A stretch of DNA of 64,000 bases from Candidatus Rokuibacteriota bacterium (GTDB taxonomy: Bacteria; Methylomirabilota; Methylomirabilia; Rokubacteriales; CSP1-6), in NCBI GenBank assembly GCA_016184125.1, contig JACPDG010000057.1:11485-75484 (forward strand), read 5' to 3'. Position 1 is the first letter of the stretch, and each line of letters opens with the position of its first letter. The notes under the pieces were generated by a model that saw nothing but the letters and a program-made list of their open reading frames with translations, was not told the origin of the DNA and searched no databases. Below are positions 4,276 to 63,800 of the stretch, piece by piece. The position numbers and the translations under genes were made by a program.

Positions 4276-5594
4276 GTGCGGTCGAACGCGCCGTCCTCGA
4301 CCATCGCGCGGAAGGCGCGCTCGTAGGCGGCGACGCTCGTCTCGATGTCCTCGTCGGAGTGGACGGCGGAGATCCAGCCGTGGTTCATCGAGCAGTCCAC
4401 GCCCTCGTTCATGAGGGCGCAGCGAAGCAGATGGTAGAGGTTCCCGCGGCGCGGGCGATCGAACCCTGCGAGTCCCGGCTTGCCTTCGAACGACACGTGG
4501 TAGAGCGAGGCCTCGCCGTACACCACGCCGGGCGCGCCCGCGCGCTGGAGCGCCTCGTTCAGGCTCCGGCGCATCGTCTCGCCGGACTTGCCCGCCCGCG
4601 CCTGCAGCGACGCATCGGCGCACAGCTCGAGCGTCGCGATCGCGGCGGCCGCGGACAGCGGGTTGGCGTTGAAGGTGCCGGCGTGCGCGACACGCTCGCT
4701 GCGGTCCCACGCCGGATCGCCGCGGTGCGCGATCATCGCCATGATGTCCCGCCGGCCGCAGAGCGCGCCGCCGGGCAGGCCACCCGCGACGATCTTCGCG
4801 AGCGTCGTCAGATCCGGGGTGACGCCGAAGTACTCCTGTGCGCCGCCGGGCGCGTACCGGAAGCCGGTGATCACCTCGTCGAACACGAGCAGCACATCGT
4901 GCTCGCTCGTCACGCGTCTGAGCTCCTCGAGGTACCCCGGGATCGTCGGCGTCGTGCCCGCCTGACCGCCGGCGGGCTCCAGGATGACGGCCGCCACGTC
5001 GCCGCGCTGGACCGCCGTCTCGACCGCCTTGATGTCGTTCGGCGGACACACGACGACCTGGTCGAGGAGCGCCCCCGGGACGCCGGCGGACATCGGCACC
5101 TCGTAGGGCGGGTTCACGCCGGCGACGACGCCGTCGTGCCAGCCGTGGAAGTGTCCCGACAGCTTCACGATGCGCGGGTGTCCCGTGTACGCGCGCGCCA
5201 CGCGGAGGGCGAGGTGGGTCGCTTCCGTGCCGGACATCGTGAAGCGGGTGAGCTCGGCGCACGGGACGAGCTGGCCGACGAGCTCGGCCCACCGCACCTC
5301 GAGCTCGTGGTTCGCGCCGTAGTGCGTGCCGCGCGCCATCTGGTCCTGGACCGCCGCGACGACCGCGGGATGCGCGTGTCCGAGGAACAGCGCGCCGTGC
5401 CCCATCCAGTAGTCGGTGTACTCGTGGCCGTCGACGTCCCACTTGCGGCTGCCGCTCGCGTGGGTGACGTACAAGGGGAACGGCAGCAGGTAGCGGATGT
5501 CGTGAGTGATCCCGCCCGGGATCGACTTCCTGGCGCGCTCGGCGAGCGCGGCGGACTTCGGATGCCGCTGGCGGAACCGGTCCAGGATCTTCAT
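4272..5594 (-). CDS. Class-III aminotransferase, glutamate-1-semialdehyde 2,1-aminomutase-like
   Basis: The start is at MKILDRF within ORF 4272..5816. SIPGG..DVDGHEYTDYWMGHGALFLGHAHPAVV..MSGTEATHLALRVARAYTG resembles HemL-type PLP enzymes. Confidence 0.8.
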   Translation of the reverse strand: MKILDRFRQRHPKSAALAERARKSIPGGITHDIRYLLPFPLYVTHASGSRKWDVDGHEYTDYWMGHGALFLGHAHPAVVAAVQDQMARGTHYGANHELEVRWAELVGQLVPCAELTRFTMSGTEATHLALRVARAYTGHPRIVKLSGHFHGWHDGVVAGVNPPYEVPMSAGVPGALLDQVVVCPPNDIKAVETAVQRGDVAAVILEPAGGQAGTTPTIPGYLEELRRVTSEHDVLLVFDEVITGFRYAPGGAQEYFGVTPDLTTLAKIVAGGLPGGALCGRRDIMAMIAHRGDPAWDRSERVAHAGTFNANPLSAAAAIATLELCADASLQARAGKSGETMRRSLNEALQRAGAPGVVYGEASLYHVSFEGKPGLAGFDRPRRGNLYHLLRCALMNEGVDCSMNHGWISAVHSDEDIETSVAAYERAFRAMVEDGAFDRT

Positions 5595-5682
5595 CGTGGC
5601 GTCCCTCGTGTCGGGCGAATCGCGGCGCGTGCGCGCAACTTGCCCATGATACCGCGAGGGCCATGACCGAATCGCGAACCCG

Positions 5683-5780
5683 AGGGGCGGCCCGGGTTCC
5701 CCGGGTGCGTCCGCGCACCCCCCGGGCCGCCTCCGAGCGTTGGGGGCTTGGGGGGCCATTTCCGGGCCCCCCATGCTATC
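5683..5780. repeat. GC-hairpin modular repeat copy R1 (reverse orientation)
   Basis: GGGTGCGTCCGCGCACCC hairpin + CCGAGCG-TTGGGGGCTTGGGGGG + G6CC-atttcc-GGC6 hairpin + CATG. Confidence 0.7.
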
Positions 5781-5790
5781 GGCCCGGCGT

Positions 5791-6762
5791 TCATCGCCGG
5801 TGCGGGCGCACGGCAAGCCTCAGGAGCTCGACGACGGCCCCGTGCGTGTCGACGCCAAAGCCATCGACCGTCGCTTCGCGCCGTCTCGTGACGCCGTCGA
5901 ACGCGCCGGCCTCGACGCACGCCTCGATGAGCCGGCGCTCGGTGTCCGGGGTGTGCAGCAGCGCCTCCCCGGTGGCGCGGGCGAGCGCAGCCACGATCCC
6001 GTACGCGCCCCAGTTCGACGTCGCGGCGACGACGAGGTGATCGACCCTCACGACGGACGCCGTGCGCGCGATCAATCCACCGGCCCGCAGGAGCCGCCGC
6101 CGGACGGTGCCCATCCCGATCTCGTTCCCGCCATCCCCGACACCAATGGTGACCGGCCGGTCCGATGCCGACTGCGCACGCCGACAAGCTGACTGCGCGG
6201 TGAATCGGCCGGACGCGGAGCCGGGAGGAGACGCCCGACGGTTGCCGGCGCCCTCGCGGCTCCCCGTCCGGCCACCTCCAGCGACGAGAAAGAGCTCGTC
6301 GATACGCCGATTCCAGGGCGTGATCACCACCCCGCGCAGGTTCATGTACTCGCCGGACGCCGCGCGACCCGGCCGCTCGACGGCGATCAGGTGCGTGGGC
6401 CGTGCGCGCGCCAGCAGCGACGGCGCGGCACCCTCACCCTCGGGATAGACCTCGATGTCGACCGGCTCGGCCAGCGCCTTCAGCGCCGCCTCGACGATCG
6501 GGACGTTATGGGGGTCCGTGACGTACGTGACCTGCGCACCGAGCCGGCGAAGCGCGCGACCGAGCACGGTGGCCCCCGGGGGGCCATCGGTCTCCGGCGT
6601 GTCGGCCGCGACGGTGAAGCCGGTCGCAATCAGAACGCGGCGCGCGGCGCGCAGCCCGGCGGCAGCCGCGAGCGCGCCGTGCGGGACGAAGAAGCCCGCG
6701 ATGCCACGCGCCCCGAGATCGAGCGCCAGGATGTGGTCGATCGGGTCGAAGTCCGCTCGCAC
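5791..6762 (-). CDS. Conserved hypothetical protein (DUF4392-like), with a low-complexity internal insertion
   Basis: A 323-aa ORF with GVGDGGNEIGMG and SNWGAYG motifs recalled as DUF4392-type. The internal stretch GGGRTGSREGAGNRRASPPGSASGR is low complexity. The family assignment is from memory. Confidence 0.45.
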   Translation of the reverse strand: MRADFDPIDHILALDLGARGIAGFFVPHGALAAAAGLRAARRVLIATGFTVAADTPETDGPPGATVLGRALRRLGAQVTYVTDPHNVPIVEAALKALAEPVDIEVYPEGEGAAPSLLARARPTHLIAVERPGRAASGEYMNLRGVVITPWNRRIDELFLVAGGGRTGSREGAGNRRASPPGSASGRFTAQSACRRAQSASDRPVTIGVGDGGNEIGMGTVRRRLLRAGGLIARTASVVRVDHLVVAATSNWGAYGIVAALARATGEALLHTPDTERRLIEACVEAGAFDGVTRRREATVDGFGVDTHGAVVELLRLAVRPHRR

Positions 6763-8684: not shown

Positions 8685-10379
8685 ATGCCCTCTTCGTTCT
8701 CACTGGTCCTTCACACCCATCTTCCGATGGTGGTCAATCACGGACGTTGGCCGCACGGCAGCGACTGGCTCAACGAGGCGGCGTTCGAGTGCTACCTGCC
8801 GCTCCTGGAGGCGATCCACCGGCTCGTCGCCGACGGGATCTCTCCCAAGTGGACGATCAACATCTCGCCGATCCTCGCCGAGCAGCTCGCGTCCCCGGAG
8901 TTCCAGAAGGAGATGTCGTTCTACTACGACAACGTCCGCCGGGCGTGCGTCGACACGCGCGAGCACTTCGCGAATCACGGCCTCGGCGACGTGGCTCGTC
9001 TCACGCACTTCTGGGAAGAGTTCTACGAGCGAATGTGGGAGCTGCATCGGCGCATCGGTGGCGATATTCCGGGCACGTTCGCCGAATTGCAAGCTGCGGG
9101 CCACGTGGAGATCATCACGACCGCCGCCACCCACGGCTACCTGCCCCTCCTCTCGCGCGACGAGTCGATTCACCTCCAGCTCCGGACCGCCATCGAGACG
9201 CACCGGCGGCACTTCGGCCAGGCGCCCCGAGGTATCTGGCTGCCGGAGTGCGCCTACCGCCCGCGCTACGAGTGGACGCCGCCGACGGGCCGCGACCGTG
9301 AGCGCTTCATGCGGCCCGGCCTCGAGGAGCTGCTCGCGGCCCACGGTCTCGAGTACTTCGTCGCCGACGCGCATCTGCTCGCGGCGGGCGCGCCGATGTT
9401 CCCCTACCGCGAGTACATGGCCTTCCGTCGGGATCTCGGCGGTCCGTCATCGGCGGAGCCGTCGGCGACCGTGCCGCGCTCACCGTACGCGACGTACCGG
9501 ATCAGCTCGCGCGGAGGGACTGGAGAGGCCACGGGGTTCTTCCGCGATCCTCGCACCACGCTCCAGGTGTGGAGCCGCGAGCACGGCTACCCGGGCGACT
9601 TCGCGTATCTCGAGTTCCACAAGAAGCACTTCCCGGGCGGGCTCCGGTTCTGGAAGATCACCGACGCGTCGCGTGACCTCGCGACCAAGGGGGTGTACGA
9701 GCCGGACGCGGCGCGCGCGAAGGTCCGCGAGCACGCGCGGCACTTCGTCGCGCTCGTCAGCGACACGCTCGCCGCGGCCGAGAGCGACGGTCCCGCCGTC
9801 GTCTGCTCCCCGTACGATGCCGAGCTGTTCGGGCACTGGTGGTTCGAGGGTCCGGCGTGGCTCGAGCAGGTCGCCCGGGAGATGGCGAAGAACGGCGTGC
9901 GGCCGATGGCGCTCGGTGAAGCGGTCGCCGCGGTCCCCCCGCGCACGACCATCTCGCTCCCCGAGGGCTCCTGGGGAGAGGGCGGCGACCATCGCGTCTG
10001 GCTGAACGCGGACACGGAGTGGACGTGGGACCGCCTGTACAGCGCGGAAGCCGAGTGGGTCGAGCTGGTCTCGCACGCGGCCGACGCCCACCGGGAGCTC
10101 CGGCGCGCGCTGGCCCAGGCCACGCGCGAGCTGCTGCTGCTCCAGGCCTCCGACTGGCCGTTCCTCATCACGACCGGCTCGGCGCGCGACTACGCCGAGC
10201 GGCGCGTCGCGGAGCACTACGCGGACTTCAAGCGGCTCACGGAGATGGCGAGGCGTCTGCGGGACGGCGAACCGCTGTCGGTCGAGGCGGCCGAGCTCCT
10301 GCGGCGCCTCGAGCGCGAGGACTTCTGCTTCCCCGACCTCGATCCCGCGTGGGGCGTGGCCCGCGGCGCGGCCCGGTGA
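8685..10379 (+). CDS. GH57-family 1,4-alpha-glucan branching enzyme (DUF1957 type)
   Basis: The start is at MPSSFSLVLHTHLP (the GH57 hallmark HTHLP) with an AAAGG-like RBS. WLPECAY and PYDAELFGHWWFEG motifs are present. The upstream part of tool ORF 8592..10379 is taken as leader. Confidence 0.75.
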   Translation: MPSSFSLVLHTHLPMVVNHGRWPHGSDWLNEAAFECYLPLLEAIHRLVADGISPKWTINISPILAEQLASPEFQKEMSFYYDNVRRACVDTREHFANHGLGDVARLTHFWEEFYERMWELHRRIGGDIPGTFAELQAAGHVEIITTAATHGYLPLLSRDESIHLQLRTAIETHRRHFGQAPRGIWLPECAYRPRYEWTPPTGRDRERFMRPGLEELLAAHGLEYFVADAHLLAAGAPMFPYREYMAFRRDLGGPSSAEPSATVPRSPYATYRISSRGGTGEATGFFRDPRTTLQVWSREHGYPGDFAYLEFHKKHFPGGLRFWKITDASRDLATKGVYEPDAARAKVREHARHFVALVSDTLAAAESDGPAVVCSPYDAELFGHWWFEGPAWLEQVAREMAKNGVRPMALGEAVAAVPPRTTISLPEGSWGEGGDHRVWLNADTEWTWDRLYSAEAEWVELVSHAADAHRELRRALAQATRELLLLQASDWPFLITTGSARDYAERRVAEHYADFKRLTEMARRLRDGEPLSVEAAELLRRLEREDFCFPDLDPAWGVARGAAR

Positions 10380-18815: not shown

Positions 18816-20191
18816 GCGAGCCGAGCGGTGACCGGGCCGAGGGGCCGGCCGCGCCCGAGGGGCGCGCGGCCGCGCCCGAGGGGCGCGCGGCCGCGCCCGA
18901 GGGGCGCGCGGCCGCGCCCGAGGGGCGCGCGGCCGCGCCCGAGGGCGTCGACGACCTCGGGCCGGGAGTCGGGGAGGCGCTGGAGCGCCTGCGGCCACGG
19001 GACCTCGCCGTGGGCATGCTCACGTACAACAACGCGGAGACGGCCGCGGCCGTCGCGCAGAGCGCGGTCCGGGGCATCGAGCAGTATCTTCCCGGCACGT
19101 CGGCGGTGATCCTCAGCGTCGACACCGGGTCCGTGGACGGGACGCCGGACACCCTCGTCGGGCCGTCGGCGGTGCCCGTCGTGTCGATGGTCCACCAGGC
19201 GCGGCTGGCCGAGCGTCTGACCGTCCCGTTCCACGGGGTACCGGGACGCAGCGAAGCGCTGCGCCGAACGCTCGCCGCGTCGCACCGGCTCGGCGCGCGG
19301 GCCCTGGTCCTGCTGGAGGCGGATCTCGCGTCGCCGCCACCCGAGTGGGTGGCGCGCCTGGCGCTGCCGGTGCTCGAAGACAAGGCCGGCTTCGTCGCGC
19401 CGGTCTACGCGCGGCACCGCTACGAGGGGACGATCACGAATCTCCTGCTGGCGCCGCTGATCCGCGCGCTCTACGGGCGCCGTGTCCGGCAGCCGTTCGG
19501 CGGCGAGCAGGCGCTGTCCGGGCGGCTCGTGGACCACCTGCTGATCCACCCGCAGTGGGACTGGCGGAGCGACGATCTGAGCGATGTCTGGGTGCTCGGC
19601 ACGGCCATCGCCGACGGCTTCAGCGTGTGGGAGACCTGGCTCGGCCGCCGGACGATCCGCTCGCGCGCCCGCACCACGGACCTGCCCTCGATGCTCGCGC
19701 AGACGCTCGGCGCCGTCTTCGCCGTCATGCACCGCCACCAGGACCTGTGGCTCGACGTCCGCGGCAGCGAGCCGCTGCCAGAAGTCGGCGAGCGCGTGCT
19801 GCCCGCGGTCGACCCCATCGAGGTCGACGTGCCCCGCATGATCGAGGGCTTTCGCCTGGGTCTCAGGGACCTCGTGCCGATCTGGGAGCACATCCTGGCG
19901 CCGGAGACGCTGGGCGACGTGCTGTCGCTCGAGACGGTCGACCCGGCGGAGTTCCGGTTCCCCGACGACGTGTGGGCGCGCGTCGCCTACGACTTCGCCC
20001 TCGGCTATCACTACGACGTCGTGTACCGCGACCACCTGCTCCGCTCGCTGGCGCCGCTCTACCTGGGCCGCACGGCAGCGTTCGTCCGGCAGACGCAGGG
20101 TCGCAGCGCAGAGGCCACGGAGGCGATGCTGGACGCCGTGGGCGCCGCGTTCGAGCGCCAGAAACCGTACCTGACGGACCGGTGGAGATGA
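18812..20191 (+). CDS. Glycosyltransferase (GT2/GT-A-like) with N-terminal (PEGRAAA)n repeat
   Basis: ATG overlaps the treT stop (ATGA). VGMLTYNNAETAAAV..SVDTGSVDGTPD resembles the GT2 PTYNE...DDGSTD region. The N-terminus is encoded by a perfect 21-bp tandem repeat. The precise family is unknown. Confidence 0.55.
   Translation: MSEPSGDRAEGPAAPEGRAAAPEGRAAAPEGRAAAPEGRAAAPEGVDDLGPGVGEALERLRPRDLAVGMLTYNNAETAAAVAQSAVRGIEQYLPGTSAVILSVDTGSVDGTPDTLVGPSAVPVVSMVHQARLAERLTVPFHGVPGRSEALRRTLAASHRLGARALVLLEADLASPPPEWVARLALPVLEDKAGFVAPVYARHRYEGTITNLLLAPLIRALYGRRVRQPFGGEQALSGRLVDHLLIHPQWDWRSDDLSDVWVLGTAIADGFSVWETWLGRRTIRSRARTTDLPSMLAQTLGAVFAVMHRHQDLWLDVRGSEPLPEVGERVLPAVDPIEVDVPRMIEGFRLGLRDLVPIWEHILAPETLGDVLSLETVDPAEFRFPDDVWARVAYDFALGYHYDVVYRDHLLRSLAPLYLGRTAAFVRQTQGRSAEATEAMLDAVGAAFERQKPYLTDRWR
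18845..18953 (+). repeat. Perfect 21-bp tandem repeat x5 (GCCCGAGGGGCGCGCGGCCGC) encoding (PEGRAAA)n at the N-terminus of the GT2-like gene
   Basis: Four identical 21-bp units plus one variant unit, read directly from the sequence. Confidence 0.9.
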
Positions 20192-22207: not shown

Positions 22208-23874
<1,667 letters not shown>

Positions 23875-23878
<4 letters not shown>

Positions 23879-24230
23879 CATCACGGGGGGACTATCGATG
23901 CCCCCCAAACCCCCCACGCTCGGAGCGCCCCGGCAAAGCCGTGGCGCTCCTCGACCACCGGATTCCTCCACGGACTCTGACATCATGGGGGGCCCCGACT
24001 TGGCCCCCCAACCCCCCCCACGCTCGGCGGCGGCCCGGGGAACCCGGCCCGCCCCTCGGGAATACGATCCGGCCACGGGCTCTGACATCATGGGGGGACT
24101 ACCGATGCCCCCCAAGCCCCCCGCACTCGGAGCCGTCCCGGGGGGTGCGCGGATGCACCCGTGGGGTGCGCGGACGCACCCGGGGAACCCGGGACGGCCC
24201 TCGACCACCGATGCCGTTCACGGGCTCTGA
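23875..24230. repeat. Tandem array of three GC-hairpin repeat units (R2) between treS and mak
   Basis: Three units, each CTGACATCA(C/T)GGGGGG-loop-CCCCCC-AA(A/G)CCCCCC-(A)CGCTCGG-..-CACGG(G/A)CTCTGAC. The third carries two GGGTGCGCGGA(T/C)GCACCC hairpins. Confidence 0.75.
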
Positions 24231-25623
24231 CGCGCTCGCCGCCTGGATCGCCGCACAGCGGTGGTTCGCCGGCAAGACGCGCCGCATCAGCGGGCTCGTC
24301 GTCGAGGACCGGGTGCCGGTCGCGGACGCGAGCGTCCTCGTGGTCGCGGTCGCGCTCGACGACGCGACCACGCAGCGGTACGCCGTGCCGCTCCGCGACG
24401 GACAGGCCATCGCCGACGCGCTCGACGAGGCGAGTTACGGTCGCGCGCTGCTCGACCTGATCGGGCGGGCCGATCGTGCGGCCGGTGAGTCAGGGGAGAT
24501 CGCCGGGCAGCCGACGCGAGCCTTCCCGCGGGATCTGCCTCCCGCCCCATCGGTGCGGCGGCTCGCCGGCGAGCAGAGCAACACCTCGATCGTGCTCGGC
24601 GAGCGTCTCATGCTGAAGCATTTCCGCCGCCTCGTGCCCGGACGCAATCCCGACGAGGAGATCGGCCGCTTCCTGACGGAGCGGACGTCGTTCACGCACG
24701 TCCCGCGGCTCGCCGGGCACCTCGAGTACCGCCGTGGCGCGGAGCGCTCCACGCTGGCCGTGCTGCACGAGCTCGCGACCGGCGCGGAGGACGGGTGGCG
24801 CTGGGTGCTCGACGAGCTGCGCGCCATGTACTCTGGGGTGGCGCCGGCGGCCGGCGAGCCGGACGACGTCGAGCGGCAGGCCGGTCCGACGCTCGACGCG
24901 CTTCGCCAGCTCGGCGCGGTCACCGCCGAGATGCACCTCGCCCTCGCGGGAGGCGTCGCGGATCCCGCGTTCTCACCGGAGCCGATCACGCCGACCGACG
25001 TGGCCGGCTGGTCGCGCGCCGTCGAGCGCCAGCTCGACGAGGCGTCGGGGGTCCTGGAGTCGAGCGGCGCGGCGGATGAGGCGTCCCGGGGAACGCTCGC
25101 GGTCCTGCGCGGCGAGCGTGCCCTGCTCTCCGCGGGGCTGATGGAGCTCGTGGGGCGCACGAAGATCCGCCACCACGGCGACTATCATCTGGGGCAGACG
25201 CTGTACCGGCCGCGCGAGCGGGAGTGGCTCGTGATCGACTTCGAGGGCGAGCCGCTGCGCCCGCTGGCCGAGCGCCGCGCGAAGCACGCGGCGCTCCGCG
25301 ACGTCGCCGGCATGCTGCGCTCGCTCGACTACGCCGCGGTGACCGCGATGCCGGCCGGCCTGGACGTCTGGGCGCGTGCGTGGGAGCGCGCCGCGTCAGC
25401 CGCGTTCGCCGCCGGGTACCGCGAGCGTGCCGCCGGCGCCCCGTTCCTGCCGGTGTCGCCGACGGCGTTCACGTCGGCGGTGGCCGTGTTCCTCGTGGAG
25501 AAGGCCGCGTACGAGGTCGTGTACGAGGCGGCTCACCGGCCCGCGTGGTTGCCGATCCCGCTCGGCGGGCTCACGCGGGCGCTCGCCGCGCTCACTGGCC
25601 GCCCTCGGGCTGGGGCGGCGTGA
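24211..25623 (+). CDS. mak: Maltokinase (maltose 1-phosphate synthase, Pep2/Mak)
   Basis: The N-terminus (AAWIAAQRWFAGKTRRI) and C-terminus (HGDYHLGQTL..IDFEGEP..RDVAGMLRSLDYAA) align with Mak/Pep2. The ATG start lies inside the terminal part of the upstream repeat unit. Confidence 0.8.
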   Translation: MPFTGSDALAAWIAAQRWFAGKTRRISGLVVEDRVPVADASVLVVAVALDDATTQRYAVPLRDGQAIADALDEASYGRALLDLIGRADRAAGESGEIAGQPTRAFPRDLPPAPSVRRLAGEQSNTSIVLGERLMLKHFRRLVPGRNPDEEIGRFLTERTSFTHVPRLAGHLEYRRGAERSTLAVLHELATGAEDGWRWVLDELRAMYSGVAPAAGEPDDVERQAGPTLDALRQLGAVTAEMHLALAGGVADPAFSPEPITPTDVAGWSRAVERQLDEASGVLESSGAADEASRGTLAVLRGERALLSAGLMELVGRTKIRHHGDYHLGQTLYRPREREWLVIDFEGEPLRPLAERRAKHAALRDVAGMLRSLDYAAVTAMPAGLDVWARAWERAASAAFAAGYRERAAGAPFLPVSPTAFTSAVAVFLVEKAAYEVVYEAAHRPAWLPIPLGGLTRALAALTGRPRAGAA

Positions 25624-33443: not shown

Positions 33444-33475
33444 CGACGGCGGCCCTCACAGCCCCTGAACCACTC

Positions 33476-33560
33476 CCGAGCCGCGCCCCGGGTCCCCCGG
33501 GGCGCGTGCGAGCGACCGGGGGGCTTGGGGGGCATCGATAGTCCCCCCATGATGTCAGTG
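33476..33560. repeat. GC-hairpin repeat copy R3 (reverse orientation), overlapping the YHS gene stop
   Basis: ..CCGGGGGGCTTGGGGGGCATCGATAGTCCCCCCATGATGTCAG. Confidence 0.7.
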
Positions 33561-33740
33561 CTGCTCGACGGCGCCGCCCTCGAGGTACGTGTCGGGATCA
33601 CGGTCGAACTTCTGCTTGCAGCCCACCGCGCAGAAGTAATAGGTCTCGCCCTGGTACTTCGACTGCGCCGCCGCCTTCGCGGGCTCGACGTCCATGTGGC
33701 ACACGGGGTCCTTCGCCATCGCATCGTCCTCCTTCATCCG
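33555..33740 (-). CDS. YHS-domain metal-binding protein
   Basis: [25 protein letters not shown] is the YHS/TRASH-type motif. It lies immediately downstream of copA, and its stop codon lies within the end of a GC-hairpin repeat copy. Confidence 0.7.
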
Positions 33741-36383: not shown

Positions 36384-36464
36384 GTGTGCAGGACGCCGGC
36401 GGCGGCTGTCAACACCGCGAAGGTGAGACGGCGGTCCGGCTCACCGGAGGCTCAGCGCCCGTGA

Positions 36465-36835
36465 ACGAATCGCGTGGTCGAGGAGCGCCCCGGCGCTATG
36501 CCTGCCCTCCAGTCCGCCGAGGGGTGTCGAGAGGACCGCCCCGGGGGTTCCCGGGGCGGTTCCGAGCGCGGGGGGGTGTGGGGCATACGCGTTAACGTAA
36601 TATCGGCTTACGATGTGAATCCGCGGGAAACCCACGATTTCCGGGGTCCAGGTCCGCCAAGAGACCCCGAAAAGACGGGCATGGGGGTGTGGGGCGGGGT
36701 GTGGGGGGCCATGTCGGGGCCCCCAGGGACGCAGCGGGAGATCGAGGACCGCCCCGGGTTTCCCGGGGCGGTTCCGAGCGCGGGGGGGTATGGGGGGCCA
36801 TGTCGGGGCCCCCCATGATCAAAAGAGCGATGGCT
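36465..36835. repeat. Cluster of three or more degenerate GC-hairpin repeat units (R4) with an atypical AT-richer core
   Basis: A repeated CCGCCCCGGG(G)TTTCCCGGGGCGGTTCCGAGCGCGGGGGGGT(A/G)TGGGG(GG)CCATGTCGGGGCCCC motif occurs twice. The core between is GCATACGCGTTAACGTAATATCGGCTTACGATGTGAATCC. Confidence 0.65.
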
Positions 36836-48820: not shown

Positions 48821-48900
48821 GCCTTCCAATTCCGGAAGGTGACCCCGCCATCCCGGCGGGGATCAGCCGGGGCAGGAGTCCCCAAGGAGAGTCGCAGGAC

Positions 48901-49101
48901 ATGGCACAGGGACGTGTGAAGTGGTTCAACGATGCGAAGGGGTACGGGTTCATCACGCAGGACGGCGGCGAGGACGTGTTCGTCCACTACAGCGCCATCC
49001 AGGCTCAGGGCTTCAAGACGCTGTCCGAGGGTGACCTGGTCGAGTTCGAGGTGACGCGCGGTCCGAAGGGTCTCCAGGCGGCGAACGTCCGCAAGCTCTA
49101 A
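48901..49101 (+). CDS. cspA: Cold-shock protein
   Basis: [28 protein letters not shown]. 66 aa, RNP1/RNP2 motifs, AAGGAG RBS. Confidence 0.9.
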
Positions 49102-49173: not shown

Positions 49174-49219
49174 GTTCGAGCCAACAATCGACCGCCGGGC
49201 GGTCGATTGTTGCTCGAAC
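49174..49219. repeat. P1 palindromic element, copy 1 (46 bp near-perfect palindrome)
   Basis: GTTCGAGCCAACAATCGACCGCC-GGG-CGGTCGATTGTTGCTCGAAC. Confidence 0.8.
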
Positions 49220-49271: not shown

Positions 49272-49375
49272 TCTCATCCGAGCAGATGACCGAGCCGCGG
49301 GGTCGTCTGTGCCGGAACGTGAACGATCATCCAGCGTGACCGCCGCGGCGACACCGCCAAGCGAGGCAAGAGGAC

Positions 49376-49576
49376 ATGGCACAGGGCATCGTCAAGTGGT
49401 TCAACGACGCGAAGGGCTACGGCTTCATCCAGATCGAGGGGGGCGAGGACGTCTTCGTCCACTACAGCGCGATCCAGGCCTCCGGGTTCCGCACGCTCGC
49501 CGAAGGCGATGTCGTGGAGTTCGAGATGGCGCGGGGCCCGAAGGGACTTCAGGCGTCCAACGTGAAGAAGGTCTGA
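49376..49576 (+). CDS. cspA: Cold-shock protein (second tandem paralog)
   Basis: [34 protein letters not shown]. 66 aa. Confidence 0.9.
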
Positions 49577-50057: not shown

Positions 50058-50441
50058 CTACTCGACGACGATCCGTCCGCGATTACGTTCCCAGAGTCCC
50101 GCGCCGATGCCCTGCACGCGCCGGATCTCCTGCGGTTTCTTGAAGACGCCGTGCGTCGTCCGGTACTGGACGATCTTCTCGGCGACCTTGCGGCCGATGC
50201 CGGAGAGCGTCATGAGCTGATCGACGCTCGCCGTGTTGATGTTCACGGGTGCCGAGGCGGCGACCTCGGACTTCGTGTCCGTCACGGCCGTCTTCTCGGT
50301 TCGAGCGACAATCGACCGCCGCGGCGGTCGATTGTCGCTCGAACTCTCCGGCGCGGCGGATGCAGCCGGCGTCAGCAGGAATGGCAAGATCGAGGCAACG
50401 ACGAGGGCGATCGCGAGCGACGAGCGAAGTGCGATGCGCAT
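50058..50441 (-). CDS. comEA: ComEA-like helix-hairpin-helix DNA-binding protein (signal peptide, linker, HhH)
   Basis: Signal MRIALRSSLAIALVVASILPFLLTPAASA, and C-terminal NINTASVDQLMTLSGIGRKVAEKIVQYRTTHGVFKKPQEI. The linker ESSSDNRPPRRSIVART is encoded by a P1 palindrome copy. Confidence 0.7.
   Translation of the reverse strand: MRIALRSSLAIALVVASILPFLLTPAASAAPESSSDNRPPRRSIVARTEKTAVTDTKSEVAASAPVNINTASVDQLMTLSGIGRKVAEKIVQYRTTHGVFKKPQEIRRVQGIGAGLWERNRGRIVVE
50299..50345. repeat. P1 palindromic element, copy 2 (inside the comEA-like ORF, in frame)
   Basis: GTTCGAGCGACAATCGACCGCC-GCGG-CGGTCGATTGTCGCTCGAAC. Confidence 0.8.
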
Positions 50442-50470: not shown

Positions 50471-50635
50471 ATGATCCGTTCACGTCCGAGTTCATCGGGG
50501 GACTATCGATGCCCCCCAAGCCTCCCAACTCGGAGCGCCCCGGGGGGGTGCGCGGACGCACCCGTGGTGCGCGGACGCACCCGCCAAAGCCGTGGCGCTC
50601 CTCGACCACCGAATTCCTTCACGGGCTCCGCGGCG
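50471..50635. repeat. GC-hairpin repeat copy R5 (full, two GGGTGCGCGGACGCACCC-type hairpins)
   Basis: TTCATCGGGGGACTATCGATGCCCCCCAAGCCTCCCAACTCGGAGCGCCCCGG GGGGGTGCGCGGACGCACCC GTGGTGCGCGGACGCACCC GCCAAAGCCGTGGCGCTCCTCGACCACCGAATTCCTTCACGGGCTCCG. Confidence 0.75.
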
Positions 50636-50816: not shown

Positions 50817-51122
50817 CTACTCCTCCGCGCGCTCCTCGAGCCGCGCCAGGTACTCGGCCCACTCGACCGGTACGAGGCTCTGCTTGCGTGTGTTGCAGTC
50901 CTTGCAGGACGGCACGACGTTGCCGCGCACCGACGTGCCGCCGCGGCCCAGTGGCACGATGTGGTCCATCGTGAGGGAGGTGGGGCCGACCGACCGGCGG
51001 CAGTAGTAGCAGACGCCGCTCGCGATGCGGCGCTTCCACCAGGCGCTCTTTCTGAGCTCGCGCGCCCGCGCCCGCTCGCGCCTGAGCTCGTCGGGATCGA
51101 TGGGCGCGTAGAACTCAGGCAT
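50817..51122 (-). CDS. HNH endonuclease (small stand-alone)
   Basis: CYYCRRSV..LTMDHIVPLGRGGTSVRGNVVPSCKDCNTRK is the HNH motif. 101 aa. The start overlaps the ABC-F 3' end by 8 nt. Confidence 0.7.
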   Translation of the reverse strand: MPEFYAPIDPDELRRERARARELRKSAWWKRRIASGVCYYCRRSVGPTSLTMDHIVPLGRGGTSVRGNVVPSCKDCNTRKQSLVPVEWAEYLARLEERAEE

Positions 51123-53181
51123 CGTCCGCGAGCGCGCCCGCCAGCTCCTCCCACTCCGACATGAGGCCGGCGAGGTCGCTCTCGGCGCTCTTCCGCTCCG
51201 CGAGCACCGCCCGCGCACGGTCGCCGTCCCGGTACAGCTCGGGCTCGGCCAGCATCCCCGAGATCTCGTCGAGGCGCGCCTCGAGCTCGGTGATGCGCCG
51301 CTCGACGGCGTCGAGCCGGACGCGCAAGCGCCGGACCTCGGCCGCGGATCGCCGCCGCTCGCGTGGCGTAGGACTGCCGTGCGCGCGGCGGGCGTCGGCC
51401 GCGGGCTCTGCGGCGCGCCGGCGCCACGCGACTCCGGTGTCGTCCGTCCCCGCCGGATCCTGCGACGCCGTGTCGGGAGCGGCCAGGCGTGCGCGCGCGT
51501 CGCGGTAGTCGTCGTACGTACCGGGGTACGACGTGAGCCGACCGTCCTCGATCTCCACCACGCGGCTCGCGATGCGGTTGATGAAGTAGCGGTCGTGCGA
51601 GATGAAGACGATCGTGCCTCCGAAATCGGCGAGCGCGTCCTCGAGGACCTCGCGGGACGCGAGGTCGAGATGGTTCGTCGGCTCGTCGAGGGCCAGCAGC
51701 GCGGCGGGGCGCACGAGCATGCGCGCCAGGGCGAGCCGGGCCTTCTCGCCACCCGAGAGCACCGCCACGCGCTTGTCGACGCTGTCGCCCGAGAAGAGGA
51801 AGCTCCCCAGGATCGTCCTGAGACGCGTCCGCCCGAGCTCGGGCGCCGCGCGCTCCATCTCCTCGTAGACGGTCCGCGACGGGTCGAGGGCCTCGAGCTG
51901 GTGCTGCGCGTAGTAGTGGATGGTGACGCCGAGCCCGAGCGTCCGCTCTCCCCGCTCGAACGGCAGCGTGCCGGCGAGCACGCGCAGCAGCGTCGACTTC
52001 CCGGCCCCGTTCGGCCCGACGAGCGCGACCGTCTCGCCGCGCTCGACCTCGAAGTCGACGCCGGCGTACACGACCCGGTCGCCGTACGCCTTGTGGAGCC
52101 CACGCAGCGTGAGGACCCGCCGGCCGGTCCGCGGTGCCTCCGGAAACGCGAAGCGGATCCGCCGCTGGGCCTCCGGCACCTCGACACGCTCCATCCGCTC
52201 GAGCATCTTGAGCCGGCTCTGGACCTGTCTCGCCTTCGTCGCCTTGTAGCGGAAGCGCTCCACGAACCGCTCGATCTCGGCGACGCGCTTCGCCTGGTTC
52301 GCCGCCTGCGCCTCGAGGAGCTGCCGGCGCGTCTCGCGCTCGACCAGGAAATCGTCGTAGTCGCCGGCGTAGACCGAGACGCCGCCCGGACCGAGGTCGG
52401 CGATCGACGTGACCATGCGGTTCAGGAAGTAGCGGTCGTGCGAGACCACGACCACGGTGCCGTCATAGCGCTCGAGAAAACTCTCGAGCCACCCGAGCGA
52501 GTCGAGATCCAGGTGGTTCGTCGGCTCGTCGAGCAACAGCAGCGACGGCCGCAGCAGCAGGAGGCGGGCCAGGGCCGCGCGCATCCGCCACCCGCCCGAG
52601 AACTCGGCCAGCGGGCGCGTCACCTCGGCGGGCGCGAAGCCGAGCCCGCCGAGGATCAGCCGCGCCCCGGTCTCGAGGCGATAGCCGCCGAGCGCGTCGA
52701 AACGCTGCTGCAGCTCTCCGTAGCGGGCGGTGAGCGCCTCGTCGGGGGCGCCGGCCAGGGCGGTGGCGACGACCTCGAGCTCGCGCTCGAGCTGCCACAC
52801 CTCGTCGAACCCGGACAGCGCCTCGCCGAGGACCGTGATCATGGGGGGACCATCGAAGCCCCCCAAGCCCCCCGCGCTCGGAGCGCCCCGGCCAAGCCGT
52901 GGCGCTCCTCGATCACCCGCTTGGTTCACGGGCTCGGTGACGGTGTGCGGCACGGCGCCGCCCGCGTCCTGCGGCAGGTACCCGACCGTCGTGGTTCGCG
53001 GCCGGCTGACCGCCCCGCTGTCCGGCGTCTCCTGCCCCGCCAGGATCCGGCAGAGCGTCGTCTTGCCCACGCCGTTCGGTCCGACGAGCCCGATCCGCTC
53101 GCCGTCGCCGATCCGCCACGAGAGGTCGCGGAAGAGCGTCTGCCCGCCGTAGGTCTTGGAGACGCCGTCGAGCTGGATCAT
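51115..53181 (-). CDS. ABC-F family ATPase (two ABC domains, EttA/Uup-like) carrying an in-frame repeat insertion
   Basis: MIQLDGVSKTYGG, two Walker A sites (GLVGPNGVGKTT; ALVGPNGAGKST), two signatures (FSGGWRMRAALARLL; LSGGEKARLALARML) and a coiled C-terminus. Residues NQAGDRGAPRLGRGAPSAGGLGGFDGPPMITV are encoded by a GC-hairpin repeat copy. Confidence 0.85.
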   Translation of the reverse strand: MIQLDGVSKTYGGQTLFRDLSWRIGDGERIGLVGPNGVGKTTLCRILAGQETPDSGAVSRPRTTTVGYLPQDAGGAVPHTVTEPVNQAGDRGAPRLGRGAPSAGGLGGFDGPPMITVLGEALSGFDEVWQLERELEVVATALAGAPDEALTARYGELQQRFDALGGYRLETGARLILGGLGFAPAEVTRPLAEFSGGWRMRAALARLLLLRPSLLLLDEPTNHLDLDSLGWLESFLERYDGTVVVVSHDRYFLNRMVTSIADLGPGGVSVYAGDYDDFLVERETRRQLLEAQAANQAKRVAEIERFVERFRYKATKARQVQSRLKMLERMERVEVPEAQRRIRFAFPEAPRTGRRVLTLRGLHKAYGDRVVYAGVDFEVERGETVALVGPNGAGKSTLLRVLAGTLPFERGERTLGLGVTIHYYAQHQLEALDPSRTVYEEMERAAPELGRTRLRTILGSFLFSGDSVDKRVAVLSGGEKARLALARMLVRPAALLALDEPTNHLDLASREVLEDALADFGGTIVFISHDRYFINRIASRVVEIEDGRLTSYPGTYDDYRDARARLAAPDTASQDPAGTDDTGVAWRRRAAEPAADARRAHGSPTPRERRRSAAEVRRLRVRLDAVERRITELEARLDEISGMLAEPELYRDGDRARAVLAERKSAESDLAGLMSEWEELAGALADDA
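52836..52941. repeat. GC-hairpin repeat copy R6, inserted in frame within the ABC-F coding sequence
   Basis: GTGATCATGGGGGGACCATCGAAGCCCCCCAAGCCCCCCGCGCTCGGAGCGCCCCGGCCAAGCCGTGGCGCTCCTCGATCACCCGCTTGGTTCACGGGCTCGGTGAC. Confidence 0.75.
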
Positions 53182-53585
53182 CCCATCGTCTGCAGACGCT
53201 CGGGGACGATCTTCACCATCACGCGCACCTCGCCCGGACGCTTCCAGGGATACCGGTCCTGACCGATGTACTTCTTCGCGAGCGCGTCGATGTGCTCGTC
53301 GGCGCCGCGCTCGGTCATCTCGGCGACGCGGCCCTGCACCTGCACGTAGCGGTAGGGGTTGTCGGGATCCTGGATCGACAGCGCGATCCGCGGGTTCTTC
53401 TGGAGATTGCGGTCCTTCACACGGCCGCGCGCGGTGTTGATCCGGATGTGGGTGCCGTCCCAGTCGAGCCACACCGGCGTGACCTGCGGCTGGGCGCCGC
53501 CCGCCGTGGTCGCCAGGTGCGCGAACGCCTTCTTGGTGGTGAACAGATCTCGGAACTCCTCCGGAATCGTCGTCGCCATCGTCAC
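53178..53585 (-). CDS. Pyridoxamine 5'-phosphate oxidase family protein (FMN/F420-binding split barrel)
   Basis: FAHLATTAGGAQPQVTPVWL..IRINTARGRVKDRNLQKNPRIALSI is the PPOX-like pattern. 135 aa. The stop overlaps the ABC-F start (ATGA). Confidence 0.75.
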   Translation of the reverse strand: MTMATTIPEEFRDLFTTKKAFAHLATTAGGAQPQVTPVWLDWDGTHIRINTARGRVKDRNLQKNPRIALSIQDPDNPYRYVQVQGRVAEMTERGADEHIDALAKKYIGQDRYPWKRPGEVRVMVKIVPERLQTMG

Positions 53586-53596
53586 TTCCCTCCTGG

Positions 53597-53712
53597 TCTG
53601 AAATCATGGGGGGACTATCGAAGCCCCCCAAGCCCCCCAATCGCTCGCACGCGCCCCGGGGGACCCGGGGCGCGGCTCGGCTATCGGGTTCGTTCACCGG
53701 CCCTCAGCTGCT
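53597..53712. repeat. GC-hairpin repeat copy R7
   Basis: TCTGAAATCATGGGGGGACTATCGAAGCCCCCCAAGCCCCCCAATCGCTCG..CCCCGGGGGACCCGGGG... Confidence 0.65.
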
Positions 53713-54031
53713 CCAGCACGCTGAACGCGTGGCGTACGGACTTCGCGGAGAGCGATCCGGACATCAGCAGCGCGATGTCGAGCGTCTCGGCGATCTCCTG
53801 GTCGGTCGCCCCCTGGTCGAGGACCTCCTCGACGCGATGGTCCACTCAGTCGAAACAGTTCTGCGAGACCGCGATCGCGAGCGCGGTCAGCTCCTTGTGC
53901 TTCTTCGACAGCGCCCCGTCGGCGTACACCTGCTTGCCGAGCTCGCCGAACGCGGCGAACACCTTCATCGGCGACGTGACGACGAGACCGTTGACGCGGC
54001 GCTTCTCCCGGTTGCGTTCGTGGACGTGCAT
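53681..54031 (-). pseudogene. AhpD/carboxymuconolactone-decarboxylase-family gene interrupted by an in-frame TGA at the CxxC site and a 1-nt frameshift (Sec candidate or pseudogene)
   Basis: N-terminal frame: ..HKELTALAIAVSQNCFD-TGA-VDHRVEEV. A -1 shift then gives LDQGATDQEIAETLDIALLMSG..RAGERTR-stop. Reconstructed, this reads C-F-D-[TGA]-V-D-H with the spacing of AhpD CxxCxxH. The RBS GAGAGGAGA precedes ATG 54031. Confidence 0.5.
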
Positions 54032-56082: not shown

Positions 56083-56406
56083 GTGGCCGCCGGTGCACGC
56101 CGCACAGCGGCACAGCGCGCGCAGGTCGGGGTACGCGTAGAGGCTCTCGTGCCCGTCGGACCAGCGCACGCGCACGCCGCGGTCGACGCGCGCGACCTCG
56201 GCCGGCCACGCCATGTCGCGCGTCACGTCCTCGAGCGTCGCGCAGCCGCCGCAGCCGCAATCGCGACGCAAGCGCTCGAACGGATAGATGCTGCCGTGCT
56301 GGTCCGCCCAGTCGACGCCGAGCGCGTAGCGGCCGACGAAGTGCACGTCCTTCGGCACGTCCGGGTCGGGCTGACCGAGGAGCGGCAGCCTCACCTTGCG
56401 GTCCAT
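56083..56406 (-). CDS. DUF971 domain protein
   Basis: 108 aa with a conserved Cys cluster (DCGCGGCA..LCRCAACTGGH), as recalled for DUF971. Confidence 0.6.
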
Positions 56407-56515
56407 GTGTTCATGGGGGGACTATCGAAGCCCCCCAAGCCCCCCGCGCTCGGAAGCGCCCCGGCACAGCCGGGGCGCTCCTCGACAGCCGTTGCGTTCA
56501 CGAACGTTCATCCAG
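56407..56515. repeat. GC-hairpin repeat copy R8, between the alkA stop and the DUF971 start
   Basis: GTGTTCATGGGGGGACTATCGAAGCCCCCCAAGCCCCCCGCGCTCGGAAGCGCCCCGGCACAGCCGGGGCGCTCCTCGACAGCCGTTGCGTTCACGAACGTTCATCC. Confidence 0.7.
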
Positions 56516-60669: not shown

Positions 60670-60774
60670 GTCGCCCTCCCGCTCGAAGGCTCACGGCGAC
60701 ACACTTCAAGAGCCGTTCCATTGCGCGCGGGCGCGAGGAACTCGCCAGAAAACCGTGGGCTTACACGATCTCGG

Positions 60775-60896
60775 GGCCCTCAGGCCGAGCGGGAAGTCGA
60801 GGAGCGCCGCGGGTTCCCCGCGGCGCTTCCGAGCGCCGGGGGGGGGTGGGGAGGGGGGTGGGGGGCCATCTCGGGGCCCCCCATGAGGTCGGTTCA
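60775..60896. repeat. GC-hairpin repeat copy R10 (reverse orientation), abutting the dnaB stop
   Basis: ..TTCCGAGCGCCGGGGGGGGGTGGGGAGGGGGGTGGGGGGCCATCTCGGGGCCCCCCATGAGGTCGGTTCAG. Confidence 0.65.
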
Positions 60897-63800
60897 GAAC
60901 GGCTGGGAGGCGCGAGCCGGGTCGGCGATGTTCTCGAAGCGCGCGTACTCCGGCAGGAAGACGAGCTTCACGGTCCCGATCGGGCCGTTGCGCTGCTTGC
61001 CGATGATCACCTCGGCGATCTTCTCTTCCTCGGGCGGCACGTCTTCCTTGTACACGCGCGAGCGATAGAGGAAGAGGATCAGGTCCGCGTCCTGCTCGAG
61101 GGCGCCCGAATTGTGACTGACGATACCGTCCGCGAGCCACGACGCAGGACCGGGAACTGTCAAGTCGAAGACGTCCTCCTCACCGTCGGCCGCCACCCGC
61201 ACGACTCGGTCCCAGAAGAGATCGCTCGTTGCCTGCGCCTCGAGCTCCTCGTCGCAGAGAATGTTTGCGTACTCAGCAACGACCGCGCGCGACGGCGCGC
61301 ACCGGAGCTGCGACGTACCCCCGTACGCCGTGCCGCGCAACCCGGCCATCCGTCGCTGCGAGATGCGGCGCTCGCGCATCAGACGCTTCACGCGCTCGAA
61401 CACCTCGCGCGGCAGCGTATCGACGTTCGTGTTCACGTCGCGATCCGCGAGCGCAGCGGCGAGTGCTCGCGCCTGGGGCTCGCGAGGACCGAACGCGCCG
61501 ACGGCGTCGAGAAAACGCCGCTGGTCGGCGCCGCCGGACACTGACACGAAGAAGCTCGTGCGATAGGTTCCCTTCCGGGCCGACGAGATCCTCGCAACGA
61601 TCCCGAGCCTCATCAGCAGCGCGGCGACGTCCGTCGCCAGTCCCGCACTGTTGGTACTGTAGAAGACCGAGTGACTGCCTCGCCCACGCCGAGGAACGAT
61701 AGTGCCATCCGTCGCCCACAGGTGTCGGAGGAGGAGGGCGATCTGCGCGTTCGAGAGGCGGAAGGCATCCTCGGGAACCCGCTTCTCGTGCGAGCGCTGC
61801 CCGAAGATCCCGAGCTGGCGCAGCCATGCGTTCACGCCCCTCGGGTGCCACCGGTCGCCGTTGCCGCTGATGAGCAGCTGATGCCAACCTCGCCGACCAC
61901 GGTACCGCGTGACGTCACACCCGAACTCCTCGCGCGCCGCCTCTGCAACGATGGCGCTGTTCTCTTCGGAGCCCGTCGTGTACCGGAGTGGCTGATGGCT
62001 GAGGGAGCTGCCGTCACCGATGAGCTGGCCGAGGAGCGCAACGCGAGCGTCGGGCCAGGACTCGGGGGACAGCGGCTCCGGGAGATGCCGCGCAAGCGCG
62101 ACGCGGTCGCCTTTGATCAATTCGGTGACCGTCTGCCATCCGCGACCGGTGAAGACCCGGTGCTCGGCCGTCGCCCGGATGGTACGGCCGCTCGCCAGCC
62201 CCACGCGGAAGACCGGTCGTGTCCCGACCTTCCAGATCCGCTCGCTCTTCGCCGCGACGATCTTCCCGGCCGGTGACATGGCGAGCACCTCGGGGGAGGT
62301 GTCCACGAGCTCCCGGATCGGAGCTCGACGTCCGTCGGAAAGCAGCACGACCGTGTCTGCCGTCACGCATTCGCGAAGGTCGGAGAGCTGCGGACGGAAG
62401 TCGCGCTGCGCGCGGCTCTCGACGGCGCGCGACAGCTGCGAGAGGGCCACGACGGGGATGTTGAGCTCCTTCGCGAGGGCCTTCAGGGATCGCGAGATCT
62501 CGGAGATCTCCTGCTGGCGGTTCTCCATCGACGCGCGGCCGCGCATGAGCTGCAGGTAGTCGATGACGACCAGATCCAGCCCGTGCTCGGCCTTCATCCG
62601 CCGCGCCTTCGCGCGCGCCTCGAGCACGGTGATGCCCGGGCTGTCGTCGATGTAGATCTTCGCCTCGCTGAGCCGTCCCGCCGCGGCCGTGAGCCGATGC
62701 CAGTCGGCCGCCGTGAGATAGCCGGTGCGGACGGATTGCGAGTCGACCTTCGCCTCCGAGCACAGCATGCGCTGGACGAGCTGCTGGGACGACATCTCGA
62801 GCGACAGCACGAGCACGCTGGCGTGCAGGTGCACGCCGACGTGCTGCGCGATGTTGAGGGCGAAGGCCGTATTGTGCGTGACCACGTAGTCGCCGGTGAT
62901 GTACGTCCGCGAGGGATGCGTCACCGCGATGCACTGCGCCTCGGACAGGCGCGTCGGCTCGACGGAGACGAAGACCGGCCAGCGCCGCCGGCGAGGCGCC
63001 GAGAGCGGGCGCGCCCGCTTCGACGAGAGCTGGAACATCGTCTTCGGCTCGGAGTGCTGGATGTTGCAGACGTACGCGGGCCTCCCGGCATGCCGCGTCC
63101 CGGCGTGGCTGTATGTGGTGCGCCGGCGGCGGACCGAGCACCACCCGCCCAGGGAGCGGACGAGATCCGCGACATCGCGCGCCAACCGCGCGCTCGTCGA
63201 GCAGAACCGAGCGCTGCCCCAGCGTTCCACCCACCCGTCGGTGTCCATGAGACCGGACAGGAGCGCGAGACGGGCGTCGCGGGAAGCGTTCAGATAGACG
63301 GCGGGGATGAACTTCTCCTCCGAGCGGATGCCCCACAGGCCGAGGCGTCTCAGTGACTCCATGAGCGTGTTCGGGGCAACCCCGGCCACGCCCTTGCGAT
63401 GCGCACCGGCGGCCTGGACGATACGCCAGTCGTCACCGCCCCCGGCGCGAAGCGCGAACGCCGCCGTGGCATGCTCCAGAACGAGCTCGCGGATCTCGGC
63501 GTCGGCCGTCGAGAACATCAGGCTGCTGCCGGAGAGCTTCCCGTCGCCGAGCCGCGCGCCGAGCAGCCAGGGGTCGATCGGGAGCGGCTCGTCGTGGCCG
63601 AAATCGCCCGACGGCGCGTCGATCCAGAGCCGGTGCCGATAGCGCGCTCGGCGGAGCAGCGCGGCGACGCGCTCGGTGGTCAGCACGCGCGGCTCGCGCC
63701 AGCGGCGGTCATGCACCCGCCAGAGATGCTCGGCGGTGCATTCCGTCGATCGGCCGTCGGAGAACGTCACCCGGTGGATCTGCTGCCGCCCCTGCGGGAA

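Follow-up and report, generated by a model that had tools for sequence, protein, structure and literature searches.

Can a gene take up a copy of a dispersed, hairpin-forming DNA repeat and go on encoding a working protein? The question is raised by a 64,000-nt stretch of contig JACPDG010000057.1 of a Candidatus Rokuibacteriota bacterium (GenBank assembly GCA_016184125.1; hereafter the window, GC = 70.5%), in which a preliminary description had noticed one copy of a GC-rich hairpin repeat lying in frame inside the gene for an ABC-F ATPase. We find that the gene contains a 102-nt, 34-codon insertion that corresponds to one full unit of a double-hairpin repeat family. The reading that we favor, with a probability of about 0.8, is that a piece of selfish DNA was inserted, passed the filter of selection, and now forms a disordered loop of 34 residues in an ABC-F protein that still functions.

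A 34-codon insertion in an ABC-F gene

The features of the locus are the following, all on the (−) strand.

51115..53181 (−): host gene, an ABC-F ATPase that is YheS-like by sequence, 688 aa
52837..52938 (−): 102-nt (34-codon) in-frame insertion, one full double-hairpin repeat unit, ABC-F residues 82–115
52880..52908 (−): hairpin A of the in-gene copy, GGAGCGCCACGGC-TTG-GCCGGGGCGCTCC, 12 bp with one A/G mismatch, from sequence and fold
52843..52864 (−): hairpin B of the in-gene copy, GGGGGGC-TTCGATGG-TCCCCCC, followed by ATGA, from sequence and fold
52937..52940 (−): left TCAC direct repeat flanking the insertion, from the sequence
52835..52838 (−): right TCAC direct repeat flanking the insertion, from the sequence

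The insertion, which encodes TEPVNQAGDRGAPRLGRGAPSAGGLGGFDGPPMI, was delineated from protein alignments made first with 16 homologues and then with 101 (102 sequences with the window protein). In the larger alignment, residues 82–115 were the sole long block present here but in less than 5% of the other sequences, and the segment is in fact absent from all 101 homologues. These include the closest one, P0002 (654 aa), which is 90% identical in the alignment outside the insert and reads ..PHTV-SVLGEALSGF.. at the insertion point. The linker from the Q-loop glutamine (Q71) to L118 comprises 46 residues in the window protein, compared to 10–12 in every homologue. The empty site was read from two syntenic metagenome contigs, L001 and L002 (protein 77% identical by BLASTP), whose DNA aligns with the window with a single clean 102-nt gap; the L001 ortholog has the sequence CACACGACCACGGTC at the site. 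The preliminary description had placed the encoded peptide, NQAG..MITV, at 52836..52941. This was close, and is refined here to 34 aa at 52837..52938. The comparison with orthologs that it had proposed as a check does give a 34-aa insertion, with borders that coincide with those of one repeat unit. Orthologs carrying the same peptide and a split of the gene at this point were both looked for; none of the 101 carries the peptide and the gene is unsplit.

The borders of the insertion are ambiguous by 2–4 nt, with TCAC at both junctions. These flanking tetranucleotides may represent a target-site duplication or a cleavage tetranucleotide. In an alternative parse, the insertion consists of a 98-nt element plus a 4-nt duplication of one TCAC in the inferred ancestral sequence ..CACACCGTCACGGTC... 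The expected empty-site sequence is ..CACACCGTCACGGTCCTC.., and the junction peptides predicted for the insert-bearing protein are ...HTVTEPVNQAGDR and GAPSAGGLGGFDGPPMITVLGEALSGFDEVWQLER.

The codons of the insert are unlike those around them. The GC content at third codon positions is 0.71 in the insert versus 0.945 in the rest of the gene, in which the lowest 34-codon window is 0.824, and 10 of the 34 insert codons are rare in the ABC-F gene. In the inserted orientation, forward frame 0 is open, while frames 1 and 2 contain two and one stops, respectively (these other forward frames are stopped by a TGA at CCCCCCATGA, with more stops upstream); all three reverse frames are open. The in-gene copy also carries private substitutions, such as TGG for TAG in the loop of hairpin B, and no other copy is identical to it. 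An ancestral segment that was lost in the orthologs is excluded by the identity with the repeat family, by the foreign codon usage, and by the 101 homologues that lack the segment.

As described previously, a stop-free frame of 860 codons (51115..53697, (−)) runs straight through the repeat, and the insertion leaves it unbroken. Only the last 688 codons of this frame constitute the gene, however. The 172 codons upstream overlap a PNPOx-family gene (53585..53178, (−)) in a different frame and cross a second copy of the repeat, and are therefore not coding. The ABC-F start is the ATG at 53181, which overlaps (ATGA) the stop of the PNPOx gene, while the ABC-F stop overlaps the start of an HNH gene, both here and in relatives. 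The same 688-aa sequence is on deposit at NCBI as protein P0001, under the name [quoted passage not shown].

The host protein contains two PF00005 domains, the PF12848 (ABC_tran_Xtn) linker and PF16326, and no membrane domain. It scores 421 bits with the generic ABC-F model NF000355, above the cutoff of 380 bits, and falls under the equivalog cutoffs for EttA, Uup, YbiT and YheS. The preliminary description had taken it to be EttA-type, but its score with the EttA model NF008775 is 401 bits, below the 599-bit cutoff, it has a C-terminal coiled coil (ABC_tran_CTD), and the closest solved relative by sequence is E. coli YheS. Judged by these comparisons, the host is a YheS-like ABC-F protein. 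Among its homologues, P0007 (711 aa) has a 52-aa internal tandem duplication from the end of the linker to the start of ABC2 (RGIRFAFPAPPRTGRRVAALREARKAYGDNVVYAGVAFEVER..), which is either genuine or an assembly artefact.

The repeat family

The repeat is well represented in the window. A 35-nt core pattern occurs in five copies at no more than three mismatches, compared to zero expected in shuffles. A nucleotide profile of the family, built from 11 window copies, matches the in-gene copy over positions 52829–52941 with 88.5 bits (E = 1e-26), and a search of the 64 kb with this profile gave 11 copies of full length and several partial ones. The copy at 23880–23977 shares 87% identity over 98 nt with the in-gene one.

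Each unit consists of five parts: a 5' module, (TC)AGAGCCCGTGAAC; about 12 variable nucleotides followed by CGAGG; hairpin A; the sequence CCGAGCG-GGGGGGCTT; and hairpin B (GGGGGGC-loop-CCCCCC), followed by ATGnnCTCAG. Single hairpins are 22–29 nt long; the unit that repeats is a composite of 100 nt, and most copies lie between genes. For hairpin A, 30 copies from the window and from metagenomes have compensatory changes in 7 of 11 pairs, with 97–98% of cells paired, and none of 500 shuffles reached the observed values. The stem of hairpin B is invariant across copies, a conservation that is not independent evidence since the metagenome loci were picked by the hairpin B motif.

The ends of the element read TCAGAGCCCGTGAAC... 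and ...CCCCCCATGnnCTCAG. In alignments of the copies, the termini are not complementary to each other, i.e., terminal inverted repeats are lacking, and the feet of the stems, which are flanked by ..TCGAG and CCGAGCG.. (hairpin A) and by ..GCTT and ATG.. (hairpin B), bear neither a GTAG nor a CGTC tag. [quoted passage not shown] No Rfam family reached its gathering score anywhere in the 64-kb window, and among the best-ranked results of the literature search, none tied Rokubacteria or Methylomirabilota to such repeats. The double-hairpin family thus appears to be undescribed, as far as the literature searched shows.

Most copies have TCAG directly before AGCCCGTGAAC and again past ATGnnC. The two ends vary together: the ABC-F copy has TCAC twice, the copy in L106 CTCAAAG twice, and that in L012 CTCAGAT twice. 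Such co-varying ends favor a short target duplication at a TCAG-like site, to judge from the sequences. They would also be compatible with a tetranucleotide cleavage site as used by IS200/IS605/RAYT enzymes.

In-frame copies in other genes

A strict 35-nt pattern had no match in the first metagenome scan, while a relaxed pattern matched at least 120 stretches of soil and sediment metagenome contigs. The family profile gave 137 matches, 80 of them near full length, in 650 kb made up of the window and the loci from the matches listed, a biased sample, as presence of the motif was the reason for choosing the loci. The share of intragenic copies ranges from about 1 in 10 (window) to about 1 in 25 (sample). 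When a pattern for hairpin B was run against genome contigs, there was, among the matches listed, one chance match on a Planctomycetota contig.

To find intragenic copies, we screened for those that a stop-free frame traverses and whose flanks look coding on either side. Among the matches listed, this screen yielded two further genuine in-frame cases.

L068:6559-9879 (+): AcrB-family resistance-nodulation-division (RND) transporter gene from a soil metagenome (PF00873, E = 1e-201), repeat at 9435-9605
L059:5608-7830 (+): PolyA_pol/CCA-adding-family enzyme gene, repeat at 6576-6665

In the transporter, a repeat dimer in reverse orientation (..MGGLEGPPKPP..) adds about 50–58 aa in frame between transmembrane segments TM10 and TM11; the alignment breaks at residues 954/956 of AcrB and 942/952 of MdtB. 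In the second enzyme, a forward copy, read in the same frame as in ABC-F (..RGAPG..GAWGALSRPPMR), lengthens the PolyA_pol/CCA-adding head domain by about 38 aa, inserted between its GGxVRD and DxD catalytic motifs, with the break at residues 49/54 of the Thermotoga protein 3h37. Seven other candidates (L006, L010, L035, L077, L093, L094 and L123) were rejected as intergenic, unclear, or antisense shadow open reading frames typical of high-GC DNA.

A profile of the repeat-encoded peptide gave 13 weak matches among 1.84 billion cluster representatives, mostly translated repeat arrays. This search is uninformative on insertions confined to a lineage, since the cluster of a protein with a private insert has an insert-free member as its representative. 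Several of the public "proteins" P0121–P0133 are translated arrays of the double-hairpin family (..RGAPRLCRGATNAGG.. repeated), as is also seen at L004:897-1008, and in P0126 the reading frame runs through a repeat copy at convergent gene ends. These entries are probably spurious or over-extended reading frames.

A different family has entered another gene of the window, near the ABC-F gene.

50295..50345 (−): copy of a 47-nt perfect palindrome, of a distinct family, inside the ComEA-like gene 50058..50441

This palindrome, of which the window has five copies (the others at 49174, 49226, 54052 and 58342), contributes 17 in-frame residues (SSSDNRPPRRSIVARTE) to the linker that leads from the signal/transmembrane segment of ComEA to the HhH domain. 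The 17 residues are absent from the closest ComEA ortholog, P0134 (86% identical, 110 aa). The deposited annotation of the gene, P0135, is only 75 aa long; it starts after the palindrome, so that the conserved membrane segment at the N terminus is missing, and has the look of an annotation error induced by the repeat.

State of the host protein

We modeled the host protein with AlphaFold2 from the 102-sequence alignment. The mean predicted local distance difference test (pLDDT) score was 86.6, and only two segments fell below 50: residues 80–109, corresponding to the insert, and the C-terminal linker, residues 578–607. The model could be superposed on ribosome-bound ABC-F proteins with template modeling (TM) scores of 0.84 for YbiT (relative to target) and 0.80 for YheS. 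The preliminary description had located the insert in the ABC1 arm region. In the model it follows the strand 66–69 and the Q-loop and lies in a loop before the short helix 117–122, which precedes the arm hairpin (126–144, 148–163), so that the insert would sit at the base of the arm rather than inside it, as a loop predicted to be disordered. In YbiT, about four residues stand where residues 75–114 are found here. Of 179 columns without variation among the other 101 homologues, the window protein matches 178, covering the Walker A, Q-loop, signature, Walker B and H-loop motifs of both sets. With a dN/dS of 0.22 relative to the L001 ortholog, and with a confident structure model, the host gene still has the look of a functional one. 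No terminator-like or promoter-like site was found at the in-gene repeat.

We propose that a dispersed, non-coding, GC-rich repeat of about 100 nt entered the ABC-F coding sequence after the split from the closest sampled relative. Three circumstances would have allowed the gene to survive: exactly 102 nt were added (98 nt plus the 4-nt TCAC duplication), a number divisible by three; the element entered in its sole stop-free forward frame; and the site, at the base of the arm, is a flexible linker joining the ABC1 Q-loop to the helical subdomain, in which 34 residues can loop out. With this length, this open frame and this flexible site, the gene is most likely still co-transcribed with the rest of its operon and translated across the repeat. 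The product would be a working ABC-F protein with an additional disordered loop rich in Gly, Pro and Arg. The insertion was probably neutral, and the insert is best read as a tolerated passenger of selfish DNA, not as an adaptation. The transposition mechanism of the element, the retained activity of the ABC-F protein and the neutrality of the insert we infer, the latter two from the sequence and the model; that the insert alters ribosome binding would be pure speculation.

Several points weigh against this proposal. The insertion is seen on one metagenome-assembled contig, and P0001 likewise represents one member from one contig. The reading of TCAC as a duplication rests on a single comparison of an empty with a filled site, and the copy at 56404 has no matching direct repeat at its ends. 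The gene-wide conservation, including a dN/dS of 0.22 relative to the L001 ortholog, mostly reflects the time before the insertion. Translation through the repeat is deduced from the open frame. The predicted RNA fold of the region (−64 kcal/mol) is unexceptional compared to shuffles (z = −1.3), and therefore says nothing on structure-dependent effects on translation. Finally, the insert adjoins the Q-loop and the arm, which are functionally sensitive, so that function may have been lost or changed.

This last point leads to the most serious rival, namely that the ABC-F protein has been inactivated and that the gene is a young pseudogene, its frame open only because the event is recent and because frames easily stay open in DNA of 70% GC. 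The insert does lie about 10 residues past the Q-loop glutamine, at the base of the arm, its codon usage is unadapted to the gene, suggesting a recent event, and bacteria usually have several ABC-F paralogues, so that the loss of one could be tolerated. However, only one of the three frames is stop-free in this orientation, and the length is an exact multiple of three. The gene has no other lesion, as judged from the invariant columns, and its operon couplings through overlapping starts and stops are intact. Moreover, the same family is found in frame in two more conserved genes and a second family in ComEA, as expected if these are frame-preserving survivors of selection. We thus consider a young pseudogene unlikely.

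If the protein does still function, the insert might itself have been exapted as a module, a Gly/Pro/Arg-rich loop that alters contact with the ribosome or the L1 stalk and is kept by selection. Its position next to the arm would suit such a role, and its basic residues (four Arg) could conceivably touch rRNA. Yet the insert is absent from all other homologues, is predicted to be disordered, and retains the composition of the non-coding repeat, and like peptides occur in unrelated proteins at unrelated loops, which points to tolerance over specific function, as has been argued for intragenic palindromes elsewhere (PMC3733652). Exaptation is accordingly a very unlikely explanation. An artefact of assembly or binning of the short-read metagenome-assembled genome, with a repeat unit spliced in by the assembler, is hardly credible: the many near-identical 100-nt repeats in the genome are hard for assemblers and a single contig is on record, but the two flanks are contiguous, in the same gene and the same frame, and they differ from the empty site by a clean 102 nt and show a direct repeat of 4 nt, whereas a repeat-induced misjoin would connect unrelated loci, the private substitutions set this copy apart from all others, and analogous events are found in independent assemblies.

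Other copies and neighbouring genes

The other copies of the double-hairpin family in the window are listed below.

50480..50632 (−): copy that carries an additional hairpin module and lies between the HNH and ComEA genes
53593..53708 (−): intergenic copy that took the place of the final codons and stop of a 54-aa gene, 53681..53845 (−)
56404..56511 (−): intergenic copy, with the HhH-GPD gene on one side and the GBBH-like gene on the other
23872..24232 (−): array of three to four units, arranged head to tail with spacings of 102 and 105 nt, which holds the closest relative of the in-gene copy
33459..33563 (+): intergenic copy in the opposite orientation
36450..36825 (+): clustered units of a related subfamily, some of them full and others partial
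5670..5782 (+): intergenic copy that belongs to a related subfamily and lies upstream of an aminotransferase gene start at 5594
60767..60898 (+): intergenic copy, again from a related subfamily

Within a 12-kb stretch that is syntenic with L001, the window has copies at 50480, 52829, 53593, 56404 and 58280, while the same 12 kb of L001 contains no full repeat copy and only a weak 50-nt partial match. Two of these copies changed the ends of genes. The 54-aa gene ends in RAGGN-stop in L001 and in RAGERTR-stop here, where the stop is supplied by the repeat; an AGGAGG that formerly was part of the coding sequence of this gene is left to the PNPOx gene as its ribosome-binding site. In L001 the genes for the HhH-GPD and GBBH-like proteins overlap (TGATG); here they are separated by the copy at 56404, the junction of which creates a new TGA stop.

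Elsewhere in the window, a tandem array at 18844..18950 consists of about five 21-nt units (CGGCCGCGCCCGAGGGGCGCG), each a small GC hairpin, and at 24150 and 50532 motifs related to these units adjoin the main repeat. Relatives share the order of the genes PNPOx, ABC-F, HNH, ComEA, CSD, CSD. A direct repeat of 204 nt (77% identity) at 48896..49099 and 49371..49574 corresponds in L001 to two adjacent cold-shock (CSD) genes, and is an ordinary pair of CSD paralogues.

Relation to known elements

In-frame palindromic repeats inside genes are a hallmark of the Rickettsia palindromic elements (RPEs), according to the summaries in PMC10969869 and PMC3733652. The preliminary description had drawn this parallel, and it holds: the repeat is dispersed and palindromic, it is absent from orthologs, the frame is kept, and several unrelated proteins are involved. 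As summarized there (citing Ogata et al. 2000, 2002), RPEs are likewise dispersed palindromic repeats of about 100–150 bp, with in-frame copies in conserved, apparently functional genes, where they contribute a family-specific peptide at fold-compatible positions, and one family may decorate several unrelated proteins, as is the case here for ABC-F, the AcrB-family transporter and the PolyA_pol/CCA enzyme. Every testable feature of the RPE-type phenomenon is thus found in the in-gene copy. The hosts differ, in that RPEs belong to the AT-rich, obligately intracellular Rickettsia, whereas the Rokubacteria/Methylomirabilota are free-living soil bacteria of high GC content (70%). The fraction of intragenic copies also differs, nearly half in some RPE families by that account, compared to about 1/10 in the window and about 1/25 in the sample here. 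The likeness is one of kind, and a sequence kinship to RPEs is not expected.

The supposition in the preliminary description that such insertions are rare for GC-rich repeats resembling repetitive extragenic palindromes (REPs) was overstated. Intragenic REPs that code for 20–82 aa have been documented in Thauera, Opitutus terrae, Stenotrophomonas and other species, GC-rich ones included, and Di Nocera et al. (2013), who found REPs wholly inside open reading frames in many species, argued that they occupy flexible linkers and loops (PMC3733652). Like the family described here, the REPs of the GTAG and CGTC super-families are GC-rich stem-loops, mostly extragenic and near gene ends, with a minority within reading frames, the intragenic ones encoding their 20–82 aa as single units or dimers at what are argued to be loop or linker sites (PMC3733652). 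REPs are imperfect palindromes of 20–40 bp, present in high copy number and mainly extragenic. Single hairpins of the present element have 22–29 nt, but the element is a composite of about 100 nt with two distinct hairpins and conserved non-palindromic modules, and the GTAG or CGTC tag is missing from the foot of its hairpins.

MITEs that form in-frame fusions, such as ERIC/YPAL, the Coxiella QMITE and the Anabaena MITEs (PMC10969869), share with the repeat its size range and the short flanking direct repeats on many copies, as well as open frames in the element, by which an in-frame insertion lengthens the host protein. Unlike MITEs, the present element has no terminal inverted repeats. There is also a resemblance to IS200/IS605-type elements and REPINs, in the subterminal hairpins and in the tetranucleotide conserved at each end (TCAG in the consensus, TCAC in the ABC-F copy). 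In REPINs, the hairpins form an inverted pair, which hairpins A and B do not. No Y1 transposase came to light, though no search was aimed at one.

Significance

In-frame "protein-coding palindromes" are best known from Rickettsia, and to our knowledge their effects on protein function have never been worked out. The phenomenon itself is already known, from Rickettsia and from the REPs of other bacteria, and what is added here is the family and the host phylum. The added interest lies in the recurrence: in a free-living, uncultured, high-GC soil phylum, three conserved proteins unrelated to one another carry one family, and a fourth carries a second. In practical terms, the repeats distort annotation, as in the NCBI ComEA protein that is truncated at a repeat and in the spurious database proteins P0121–P0133, and they inflate open reading frames, such as that of 860 codons. 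They also flag loops in ABC-F, AcrB-type and CCA-adding enzymes that tolerate 34–58 additional residues.

More tentatively, and with somewhat less than even confidence, we suggest that the repeat may be the Rokubacteria/Methylomirabilota counterpart of the RPEs: an element that is, or recently was, mobile, has a TCAG-like target or cleavage tetranucleotide, is abundant in soil metagenomes, and recurrently seeds new, translated, disordered loops in essential conserved proteins (an ABC-F protein, an RND pump and a CCA-adding enzyme). If true, a free-living phylum with large genomes would provide a second natural system for protein evolution by the insertion of selfish DNA.

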